64,000 bases of DNA from Pseudomonadota bacterium. Its GTDB lineage: Bacteria; Pseudomonadota; Alphaproteobacteria; CACIAM-22H2. The position numbers were made by a program, and so were the translations under genes. Shown here in pieces: positions 43,410-46,437 of this stretch (its first letter is position 1; each line of letters begins with the position of its first letter). The notes beneath the pieces were generated by a model. The model was given only the letters and a program-made list of their open reading frames with translations, ran no database searches and had not been told where the DNA came from. Where the stretch lies: positions 1,670-65,669 of the forward strand of contig JBQTIU010000049.1 in assembly GCA_052387815.1 (NCBI GenBank), in the 5' to 3' direction.

Positions 43410-44255
43410 TCAACCTTCGGCCGCCAGTTGCGATTTCGCCAGCCGGTCGAATGCCTGGAGCCGCGCGAGCAGGGCCGGCATGTCCTTGAGCGCGACCATG
43501 TTCGGCCCATCGGAGGGCGCGCGGTCGGGGTCCTGGTGGGTCTCCATGAACACCGCCGCGACGCCGACCGCGACCGCGGCGCGGGCGAGGACCGGCACGA
43601 ACTCTCGCTCGCCGCCGCTCCTCGTCCCCTGGCCGCCCGGCTGCTGGACCGAGTGCGTGGCGTCGAACACCACCGGATAGCCGGTCGCGGCGAGAATCGG
43701 CAGCGCGCGCATGTCGGAGACCAGCGTGTTGTAGCCGAACGACACGCCGCGCTCGCATACGAGCACATTCTGGTTGCCGGCGCCGGCGATCTTGGCGATC
43801 ACGTTGCGCATGTCCCATGGGGCGAGGAACTGGCCCTTCTTGACATTGATCGCCCGGCCGGTCTTGGCCGCCGCCACCAGGAGGTCGGTCTGCCGGCACA
43901 GGAAGGCCGGTATCTGCAGGACATCGACCGCTTCGGCCACAGGCGCGCATTGGCCGGGCTCGTGGACATCGGTCAAGACCGGGCAGCCCCACCTCTCGCG
44001 CACCTCGGCGAGGATGGGGAGGCTGTGCTCTAGGCCGACGCCGCGCGGGGCGTCGGCCGCGGTCCGGTTCGCCTTGTCGAACGAGGTCTTGTAGACGAGG
44101 CCCAGGCCCAGCCGCGCCGTCATCTCGACCAAGGCATGGCTGGTCTCGAGCGCGTGCGCCCGGCTCTCCAGCGCGCACGGGCCGGCGATCAGCGCCATCG
44201 CCCGGTCGTTGCCGAGCGTCAGGTTGCCGACATGGACGTGGCGGGGCGCGGTCAT
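43410..44255 (-). CDS. kdsA: 3-deoxy-8-phosphooctulonate (KDO8P) synthase
   Basis: 281 aa. [37 protein letters not shown]. Confidence 0.95.
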
Positions 44256-45244
44256 GCAACAGCGGCGCCGAGGCGCTCCACGATCCGGTCCGCGAGCGCC
44301 TTGAAGTCGCGCGCGGTATCGCGGGCCGCCTTGGCGTGCGAGCCAATCGCGCCATCGGCTGCGGTGAGATGAAACATGGGCTTTCGAGCCTCTTGCGCGA
44401 GCGGCAGCAAGCTTGCGTAATGCTTCAAGAGCGCCAGGCAGTAGGGATCGGTTTCGGCGGCCTCCGGCGCCAGCTCGGGTGACTCCAGAACGGACGAGCG
44501 ATACTGCTTAGGTATCGCGTTGATCCAACGATCGTAGGCTCGCACCGGCCGATCGAGTCGCACGGCGTGCCGCATGACGATATAGCCGATCGGCTCCATT
44601 CGGCCAGCCGGAAGCTCCAGCGATGGACCGGAGGCCCTGCGGGTTATCCGATCCTGCCACTGCTGGCGCCAAGTGCGAATGGTCGGGCCGAGGTTCCTTA
44701 GGCCCTGTAGCGAGTACAGGTCGGGCGCCAGGGGAAAAGCAATGGCATCCGCCGCGATCAGGGCCGCGCGGTTGATCGCGCCAAGGTTGGGGCCCATGTC
44801 GATCAAGACGAACTCGGCACGGCTTTCGTGCGCGGCCGCGGCAATAACGCGCCACAACGCGGATATGACTCGAAAGGCTCTCGCATCGCCATCGGCGCAT
44901 CGCGGCCATCCGTCGCTCAACTGGTCCTCAAACCTGGACAATGCCAGATTGCCCACGATCAAGCCCAAGTTGTCGCTAATGGCCTCGACGCGGGCGGCGA
45001 GGATATCGCCTGTACCTTCCATAAGCGGTCTCACGCACCCGAAAATCGTGCCGTCCTCAGCTTCCTCGCCCCACAGCTCCTCCAGCCTGTCCTCGTCAAG
45101 GAAAGACGCGGTCACGTTGGCCTGGGGATCAAGGTCCGCAACCACGATGCGGCGCCCCGATTCAGCCAGCCTCCACGCAAGATGAAAGACCAGCGTCGTC
45201 TTTCCGACGCCGCCTTTGTTGTTGAAGAAGGCAATGGTTCTCAC
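44252..45244 (-). CDS. ParA/MinD-superfamily P-loop ATPase (ParA-like, atypical C-terminal half)
   Basis: (GTG)[22 protein letters not shown] (deviant Walker A), [20 protein letters not shown]. The C-terminal ~130 aa are not obviously canonical ParA. GTGA overlap with the upstream gene and ATGA overlap with kdsA. Confidence 0.75.
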
Positions 45245-46437
45245 GGTCGCCTACTCACAACGACCAGCACGTGCGCCGCCTCGACCTTGAATTCGGCGGG
45301 TGGATTGCCGTTTTTTTGGAGTTCGCGTTGCGCCAGCGCGATGCCGATTCCAAACCGCTGCACAAAGCCAAGCACCTTCATCGCCTCCGCGAGGGTTGGA
45401 TTGCGATAATCGGTGACGCCCGGCTGCCCGAAGTTCTCCAGCGTCACTTGTCCGAACGGTCCCCCCGGATTCTGGATCTCGATGCGATCATCGAACCAGT
45501 TGATGCGCACTGGCGCGTTCGTCCCTTCATAGGTGCGATGGAGGATCGCATTGCGCACGAGCTGTTGCAAGGCAACGATGGGATAATCCGCGTAGCGGAC
45601 TTCAACAGGCCCGGAGGTTACGTGCACGGTGACAGAAGTGTGTGCCGTCAGCACCTCTTCTGTCGCGCCGAGCAGTTCGGGCAAAGGCCCGTCGATCTCT
45701 CGCTGGGCCTTTATCTCCGAGGATAGCTCTTGGCCGGCAAACCGAATGAATTGGACATAGGCGCCGGGGATGAACGCGCGCAGGTTGCGACCGATGGTGA
45801 GCAGTCCGACGACGGTAGGCGTGCCATCGGGCGTTGAAAACCGGAGTGACGTCAACTGTTGGACAGGACTCCGCTCGTTCTCGCGAAGAACGTCGTCGGC
45901 TACCGCGGCCGAGAGATACGTAGTTTGAAAAAGGTCGAAATCGAGGTCGTGGATCCCGGCGCCGCGCACGGGTTGTACGTCGAACGGCAAGTTCGCGGCG
46001 CGTCTTTTTTCGACGAGACGACGTTCCTCCTCCGGCGTTGCGATCGCCCGCTGGGGTCCCACGCGAATCCAAGTGCGCCCGCGATGCCGAACGGGAGGAT
46101 TATCCGCGGGTGCAACGACCACGACGGCGAGTTCGCATCCGCCAACCGTCCGTTTTTCGACCGTCATTGTCGGGAACGGGTAGATGTTGCCATTCGTCCG
46201 GAGATCGGCCAATTCCAGAAGGAGCTGGTCCGTGATCGTCAAATTCGCGCAAGATCCGTCGTCCATTGCTCCGACGAAGACGACGGCCTGCGTCCCGCGG
46301 TCGGCCAGGTCGTTGGCGAAAGCGCAGATCGCCTCGGCGATTCTGTCCTTGCTCGCAAGCGAAGCCTTGCGTTCGACGACCTCCGACTCGCCTTGAGCCA
46401 AGAGGGCCTCCAGATCGGCTTGCGATAGCACGTTCAT
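45241..46437 (-). CDS. Schlafen-like AlbA_2 domain + HATPase_c_4/wHTH protein (COG2865-type 'putative transcriptional regulator / RecG-like')
   Basis: 398 aa. N-terminus [11 protein letters not shown]...[25 protein letters not shown]...[15 protein letters not shown] (AlbA_2 pattern). C-terminus [34 protein letters not shown]...[23 protein letters not shown] (HATPase_c_4 pattern). Its ATG overlaps the pyrG stop (ATGA). Confidence 0.75.

Follow-up and report, generated by a model that had tools for sequence, protein, structure and literature searches.

A Schlafen–GHKL gene and a ParA-like ATPase gene form a conserved mobile pair, here inserted between pyrG and kdsA

The 64,000-nt window analyzed here (the whole stretch of DNA, positions 1,670 to 65,669 of the forward strand of contig JBQTIU010000049.1; Pseudomonadota bacterium, CACIAM-22H2, assembly GCA_052387815.1) contains two adjacent genes, A and B, lying between the host core genes pyrG and kdsA. 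Gene A (45241–46437, minus strand) encodes a Schlatpase of 398 amino acids (aa), identified from its open reading frame (ORF), Pfam domains and homologs. Gene B (44252–45244, minus strand) encodes a 330-aa ATPase of the ParA/Soj superfamily, identified from its ORF, Pfam domains, an AlphaFold2 (AF2) model and Foldseek searches. A and B are a real, conserved pair rather than a chance juxtaposition, and the mobile unit is the bare two ORFs, without a promoter or recombination site of their own. The Schlatpase class itself was described in 2025–26; the new element is its constant ParA-like partner. We favor, with moderate confidence, the reading that A and B together form a self-contained mobile two-protein conflict module of the abortive-infection or defense type, in which a Schlafen RNase would be controlled by a ParA-like ATPase.

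Linkage of A and B across bacteria

The distribution of B was surveyed in a one-genome-per-species collection. Its close family has at least 552 confirmed matches there, with 54–64% identity throughout, in Cyanobacteria, Planctomycetota, Acidobacteriota, Chloroflexota, Proteobacteria, Gemmatimonadota, Bacteroidota, Spirochaetia and one Actinobacterium; an exhaustive search gave 536 sequence clusters at E ≤ 1e-30. With B as the query, A proved to be the next gene upstream, in the same orientation, in 80 of 84 loci, which bears out the suggestion of the first-pass annotation, made from the sequence alone, that the two genes form a module. An ATGA/GTGA overlap of 4 nt joins the two genes in 77 of the 84. 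Three of the four remaining loci are decayed cassettes that retain short remnants of A directly upstream of an intact B (L011:9607–9714; L064:4619–4690; L081:9860–9982); such a pattern, with A lost and B kept, would be expected if A were the harmful partner. In the reciprocal direction, with A as the query, B lay downstream in all seven contexts; this test is small, the metagenome scan with A having given five loci because its peptide patterns were too specific.

The two proteins also vary together and occur joined in one chain. Pairwise distances among A proteins and among B proteins correlate over 73 loci (r = 0.58), a value reached by none of 999 Mantel permutations. A natural A–B fusion of 731 aa (P0372; L103:5001–7196, L104 and L105) contains all three domains and was met in several samples, on 15 contigs in total; proS precedes it on the same strand, 83 nt away. 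A second fusion, P0483, has 690 aa. In a further variant (P0487; L100:3814–6638, L101 and L102; seven contigs from several samples), B carries a C-terminal RES domain (PF08808), and the A gene upstream, of 396 aa, is retained together with the 4-nt overlap. RES is a toxin domain that degrades NAD+ (nicotinamide adenine dinucleotide).

Across 71 cassette loci, no conserved DNA was found outside the two ORFs, which rejects the idea that the cassette brings along a promoter, an operator or a recombination site of integron type. A rough, ORF-based measure over the same number of loci has the outer junctions overlapping a neighboring ORF upstream in 8, downstream in 14 and on both sides in 3.

Turning to the surroundings of the cassette, one context recurs. 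An HmaA-like helicase of ~1200 aa is encoded within 7 kb in 15 of 83 loci, a DUF1156 methylase in 13 and a DUF499 ATPase in 9. These neighbors are full-length matches (E = 0) to HmaA (an SNF2 helicase), HmaB (the DUF1156 methylase) and HmaC (the HEPN/DUF499 ATPase) in PADLOC, and in such loci the cassette separates HmaA from HmaB, with HmaC coming after HmaB. Hma, or "Type-1 BR", restriction-like systems enclose about 15–18% of loci. Of the immediate neighbors, 7 of 77 are HmaA and 6 of 75 HmaB, and DruE, PDC-S01, PDC-S04, SoFic, DpdJ and SngC were each met once; these PADLOC and Pfam counts cover the top families listed, and the overall fraction of defense neighbors is a rough figure. The upstream neighbors are varied, with 149 Pfam families among 77 proteins.

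Elsewhere, the cassette is found behind housekeeping genes, namely uvrA in filamentous cyanobacteria and proS for the fusion form. In the uvrA loci (Oscillatoria and Nostocales), which are on the same strand, the gap is 22–43 nt in L020, L098 and L099, and in L001 uvrA and the cassette are separated by an alpha/beta-hydrolase gene. These loci point either to vertical inheritance of the cassette at that place or to a second hotspot, located behind a housekeeping gene. More distant relatives of B occur in P22-like prophages, where full-length proteins with 28% identity are encoded directly after the c2 repressor gene. One of them, a 357-aa protein labeled 'ParA-like partition protein' in Salmonella phage ST160 (L097, 3515–5068), follows the CI-like repressor c2 and lies beside a DUF3024 gene that is a full-length match to the PADLOC candidate PDC-S43. 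We take this slot to resemble the position of rexAB in lambda, and in prophage defense slots members of the B family may have partners other than A.

Predicted activities of A and B

Gene A carries both Schlatpase domains in one chain, with the SLFN domain first: SLFN_AlbA_2 (PF04326) at residues 17–130 (45.6 bits against a cut-off of 25.3) and HATPase_c_4 (PF13749) at residues 308–393 (67 bits against a cut-off of 26). The catalytic motif is intact (E17-SEVV-E22-R-K24, that is, E-x4-E-x-K); in a 30-member family alignment, E22 and K24 are invariant and E17 is at least 90% conserved. GHKL-type motifs are present at N296-A297...H300-R301, G325-G326-P327 and F362-G363-x-G365, and the N-box- and G-box-like motifs are invariant in the same 30 members. 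There are more than 7800 homologs of A, the best with 65% identity. The N-terminal half was modeled well, and its structure matches SLFN11, SLFN13 and the SAMD9 tRNase; only these N-terminal matches were used, as the C-terminal half of the model was too poor. The best overall structural match is 3lmm, which is DIP2311 of Corynebacterium diphtheriae. From these motifs and matches, A is most likely a Schlafen-family endoribonuclease, and specifically a tRNase.

Gene B belongs to AAA_31/CbiA (Pfam) over its first ~200 residues. Its deviant Walker A motif (N8-N9-K10-G-G-V-G14-K15-T16) is invariant in the family alignment, including the signature lysine, as are D37/D39, D149 and a long C-terminal block. 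The AF2 model (pLDDT, the predicted local distance difference test, 88; pTM, the predicted template modeling score, 0.90) has one continuous ParA/Soj-type fold. Its best Foldseek match is PDB entry 3pg5 (C. diphtheriae DIP2308; TMq 0.73), and the next are Soj, ParA and McdA (TMq 0.58–0.65, probability 1.00). According to this model, the C-terminal half of B is a divergent continuation of the same ParA fold. B scores far below every curated ParA, RepA, MinD and BcsQ family: under the NCBIfam cut-offs, it reaches 70 bits against 180 for ParA (NF041546), 62 against 348 for RepA and 20 against 213 for MinD. No ParB is encoded near B, whose neighbor is the Schlatpase A, and a repeat search found no centromere-like array. 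Taken with the absence of plasmid matches described below, these scores indicate that B is not an ordinary Soj or ParA protein.

Profile searches with Pfam thus agree with the first-pass annotation that A combines AlbA_2 with HATPase_c_4 and that B is of ParA type, and they refine two of its statements. A had been described as functionally uncharacterized and as having a winged helix-turn-helix (wHTH) domain; the two main domains are there, but A has no wHTH, and its class has been characterized as Schlatpase or pSlfn1 in 2025–26. The C-terminal half of B had been called atypical; B is indeed no ordinary Soj/ParA, but this half is a divergent part of a single fold of the 3pg5 family.

The pyrG–kdsA insertion site

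In the window, A and B are framed by pyrG (46434–48065, minus strand), encoding cytidine triphosphate (CTP) synthase with 76–77% identity to relatives' PyrG, and kdsA (43410–44255, minus strand), encoding 3-deoxy-D-manno-octulosonate 8-phosphate (KDO-8-P) synthase as identified from its ORF and Pfam domain. Successive genes are joined by 4-nt overlaps on the minus strand: the pyrG stop TGA (46436–46434) with the ATG of A (46437–46435), the TGA of A (45243–45241) with the GTG of B (45244–45242), and the TGA of B (44254–44252) with the ATG of kdsA (44255–44253). The pyrG/A junction reads ...CTG GTA TGA / ATG AAC, so that the start codon of A is built from the last pyrG codon and its stop. All 2178 bases from the pyrG stop to the kdsA start are coding. 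Alignments of A and B homologs run from residue 1–4 to the last residues, and the starts and stops of both genes are therefore real and not artifacts of ORF calling. The three consecutive overlaps reported in the first-pass annotation were confirmed to the base, and its five hand-counted GC blocks were exact (0.567, 0.617, 0.633, 0.667 and 0.733).

The cassette was acquired horizontally here, as that annotation had proposed. The G+C content at third codon positions (GC3) is 0.71 in A and 0.75 in B, against 0.87–0.92 in tpiA, secG, pyrG, kdsA and eno, and both genes are absent from the relatives examined; it is this foreign composition together with the absence that indicates horizontal acquisition. 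The nearest KdsA relatives, at most 86% identical, come from uncultured Rhodospirillales/Stellaceae; the gene order ppiD | tpiA-secG-pyrG-kdsA-eno-ftsB...pdhA-pdhB is conserved. In line with the annotation, no integrase was found in the syntenic block, including the ~4.7-kb ftsB–pdhA stretch, and the repeat search found no flanking or att-like repeats at the A–B insertion, only short, imperfect ones at chance level. No tRNA or other Rfam family reached its gathering score anywhere in the 64-kb window.

The gap between pyrG and kdsA differs among all relatives examined and is a variable hotspot in this lineage. It measures 118 nt in L089; contains a Rap1a-family gene on the opposite strand in L087 and L088 (L087:5311–5571); and holds in L085 an 88-aa ORF (5728–5994) that overlaps the pyrG stop by 1 nt. 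In the closest relative, L091, the gap is occupied by a 310-aa ORF (997–1929) with a hydrophobic N-terminal stretch, whose ATG is likewise built from the pyrG GTA-TGA and which has no Pfam or PADLOC match. Only the window and L091 have pyrG ending in GTA-TGA; relatives without a same-strand insert end in GTT-TAA or GTC-TAG. At the other edge, kdsA starts with ATGAC(C/G) in all relatives compared, and the TGA that ends B is therefore native kdsA sequence. The annotation had described the two genes as welded into the junction by the three overlaps. Overlaps and insertion are real, but the middle overlap is a trait of the family, the stop of B is supplied by the native ATGAC of kdsA, and both the variability of the gap in relatives and the tight embedding of the cassette behind other genes elsewhere make the arrangement less singular.

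Unlike its relatives, kdsA in the window has no Shine-Dalgarno-like purine-rich stretch upstream, which would fit termination and reinitiation after B, and no alternative start codon lies 5' of its conserved region. The sequence of this junction suggests that kdsA is probably translated by coupling to B. The cassette would then be hard to delete, with which the missing Shine-Dalgarno-like stretch also agrees.

The same variable locus holds a second foreign ORF, outside the A–B cassette and in the same operon, which the first-pass annotation had overlooked. Located between kdsA and eno (42185–43390, minus strand), it encodes a 401-aa AAA_16/nSTAND1 (STAND) ATPase by Pfam and has the lowest GC of the region (0.577; GC3 0.72). 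An ortholog with 62% identity is found at the same position in L091, near a Type ISP restriction-modification gene. PADLOC gave weak, partial mad2/mad8 matches to the window protein (E ~0.005) and none to the L091 ortholog at E ≤ 1e-5; the STAND ATPase may be another defense-type gene in the hotspot.

Between the STAND gene and eno lies an ORF for a type II haloacid dehalogenase (41353–42288, minus strand; TIGR01428, E 1.5e-51), absent at this place in the relatives and of intermediate GC3 (0.81). The longest form of this ORF overlaps the 3' end of the STAND gene by ~100 nt and its Pfam domain starts at residue 81, both of which make a true start further 3' probable. Separately, a stretch of ~4.7 kb between ftsB/DivIC and pdhA (34932–39665) is extra relative to a Stellaceae relative; it contains TAXI/TRAP transporter genes (an NMT1_3 binding protein and a DctM permease) and a gene for a DUF2927/Sel1 protein, which look ordinary and neither mobile nor defense-related.

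Proposed function and relation to known systems

We propose that A is the effector, a Schlafen-family endoribonuclease and most likely a tRNase, whose GHKL ATPase would drive the oligomerization needed for activity. B would be a dimerizing ParA/Soj-type ATPase serving as a dedicated switch for A, either by sensing a trigger, probably linked to DNA or the nucleoid, or by keeping A inactive until triggered; the response would presumably be directed against phage. Translational coupling at the ATGA/GTGA overlap would ensure that A and B are made in fixed proportion, and the cassette, as a bare ORF pair, would rely on host transcription. In this genome, it has landed in the pyrG–kdsA hotspot and would be transcribed from the pyrG operon, with its translation coupled to that of pyrG; the pyrG promoter and ribosomes presumably supply its expression, and kdsA would in turn probably depend on coupling to B.

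The conflict-module reading draws on the strict linkage and coevolution of the two genes, their fusions, the intact active sites, the RES variant, the embedding in Hma systems and the wide horizontal spread, as well as on the published work on RzAgo, the pSlfn1 class and the BREX/BR effectors described below. Locally, the overlaps, the domain content, the foreign composition and the absence of the cassette from relatives are part of the same picture. The defense or addiction flavor sensed by the first-pass annotation is borne out by the Hma contexts and the RES variant.

Several observations weigh against a conflict module. Most immediate neighbors of the cassette are not recognized defense genes. 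A set of 72,556 plasmids contains no match to B at E ≤ 1e-40 and a single weak one to A at E ≤ 1e-20, and phages hold only distant relatives of B with 25–28% identity, a distribution that is unusual for defense genes. In PADLOC-DB v2.0.0, neither protein has a full-length model: the only match to B is PDC-M28B, over the 38 residues of its Walker A region, and A matches only the pAgo-associated Schlafen parts, with the pAgo model aligning to residues 19–393. The GHKL half of A has a pLDDT below 50 in the AF2 model, so that ATP binding is predicted from sequence motifs only. For this exact A–B subfamily, defense activity and the way in which B would act on A are likewise predicted from sequence, and A and B may bind each other in the two-gene form, a direct interface being what the fusion P0372 would predict. 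Finally, only 2 of 7 pSlfn proteins assayed gave defense (Taboada et al. 2025).

The main rival, which overlaps with the conflict-module reading, is a pure toxin–antidote (addiction) module in which A is an RNase toxin and B its protein antidote, with no anti-phage role. The pair would persist because cells that lose it are killed or harmed, an effect strengthened here by its being entrenched in an essential operon. The conserved nuclease site of A, the tight stoichiometric coupling of the two genes, the decayed loci L011, L064 and L081 that lost A and kept B, the RES toxin domain fused to B and the seamless embedding by essential or housekeeping genes (pyrG and kdsA here; uvrA and proS elsewhere) would all suit such a module. 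However, A and B are both ATPases and far larger than the partners of classical type II toxin–antitoxin (TA) pairs, it is uncommon for the toxin gene to come first, the pair is missing from plasmids, on which addiction modules flourish, and it recurs inside Hma restriction-like systems. We regard a pure addiction module as rather unlikely. Abortive-infection systems often behave as TA pairs, and for this reason the conflict and addiction readings are not exclusive.

Two further explanations were considered. B might be a positioning or partition ATPase of ParA/MinD type, with A as its nucleoid cargo or adaptor and no role in conflict. It has the full ParA/Soj fold and the invariant deviant Walker A motif, and, to our knowledge, ATPases of the ParA/MinD kind invariably act with a partner encoded by an adjacent gene. 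Yet B lies far under the NCBIfam cut-offs for ParA, RepA and MinD, lacks a ParB or centromere-like repeats and a plasmid match at the threshold given above, and is accompanied by a protein that retains a nuclease active site; the patchy distribution of the pair, its horizontal movement and its absence from close relatives also speak against positioning, which we hold to be very unlikely. Less probable still is a host-adapted regulator of CTP or lipopolysaccharide (LPS)-precursor synthesis, recruited through its place between pyrG and kdsA, as was implied by the earlier suggestion of nucleotide or envelope-stress sensing. That position and the obligatory co-expression with both genes are all that speaks for it, and nothing else supports the suggestion. 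Neither pyrG nor kdsA was found near any of the 97 other cassette loci (1.41 Mb), which also means that A–B is not an old core operon; its composition is foreign, the upstream neighbors elsewhere span 149 Pfam families among 77 proteins, and relatives carry other genes or nothing in the pyrG–kdsA gap.

A more far-reaching version of the conflict-module reading, which we put forward only tentatively, is that of a widespread two-component immune system in which the 3pg5-family ATPase would be the infection sensor or safety catch of a Schlafen tRNase. Here the system would have become entrenched, its reading frames joined edge to edge with pyrG and kdsA, so that translation of an essential LPS gene would hinge on immune genes and the host would be selected to keep these intact. 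If true, ParA/MinD ATPases, which to date are known only as positioners of cargo, would also act in immune signaling. The characterized examples all carry a fused sensor (Argonaute, an Ig-like domain or Csx15); for one large clade (at least 552 places, 536 clusters), a dedicated ParA-like ATPase appears to be the missing partner of stand-alone Schlafen–GHKL proteins. Negative results for such Schlafen genes may be explained in this way if the assays lacked the neighboring gene B. For two orphan structures from structural genomics (3pg5 and 3lmm), the pair suggests a function. The local arrangement would be a clear case in nature of an accessory cassette that has no promoter and is expressed, and perhaps kept from being lost, through translational coupling to essential genes.

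The literature yielded no prior report of a Schlafen protein with a ParA/Soj-type partner, within a limited coverage that is not proof of absence. The combination of SLFN_AlbA_2 with PF13749 was named "Schlatpase" in a 2026 preprint, according to which most Schlatpases are small stand-alone proteins; the preprint reports no conserved Schlatpase partner or ParA. In RzAgo (SLFN-pAgo), the supradomain binds ATP, tetramerizes and cleaves tRNA in anti-phage defense (bioRxiv 10.64898/2026.05.29.728809). RzAgo has the same two Pfam domains in the same order as A, in which the Ex4ExK and GHKL motifs are conserved. It differs in having a fused, guide-dependent Argonaute as its sensor, whereas the ParA-like ATPase that goes with A is a separate protein, coupled to it in translation. 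The pSlfn1 (pSlfn-HisKinase) class shares the architecture of A, the most frequent one in prokaryotic Schlafens (2017 members, 34%), with a defense-neighborhood score of 0.71 and an Ex4(E/D)xK site reported to be catalytic (Taboada et al. 2025). The system characterized in that study, RorSlfn5, uses a fused Ig-like sensor, and the text and supplementary material examined contain no two-gene system with a ParA-type ATPase.

BREX and DUF499 "BR" systems include Schlafen-HisK effectors as auxiliary parts in 1017 taxa or more, and the report describing them does not mention a ParA-like gene traveling with the Schlafen gene (NAR 2026, PMC12839542). The cassette resembles these in standing within HmaA-HmaB-HmaC in the fraction of loci given above, but in the window it has pyrG and kdsA as neighbors and no Hma or BREX gene, and A lacks the wHTH of Schlafen-HisK(-wHTH). 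B shares with ParA, Soj, MinD and McdA the fold, the deviant Walker A lysine, the Walker A' and B aspartates and an adjacent partner gene; it differs from them by ~70 extra residues, by a conserved C-terminal half specific to its family, and by the lack of a ParB, a centromere and a cargo system. Among solved structures, DIP2308 (3pg5) is nearest to B and DIP2311 (3lmm) to A; both are encoded in one C. diphtheriae genome, and their locus tags differ by three. They are only about 24% and 19% identical to B and A, respectively, in structural alignments, DIP2311 has 583 aa, and both are structural-genomics proteins without an assigned function. Judged from these locus tags, DIP2308–DIP2311 may be a distant version of the A–B pair.

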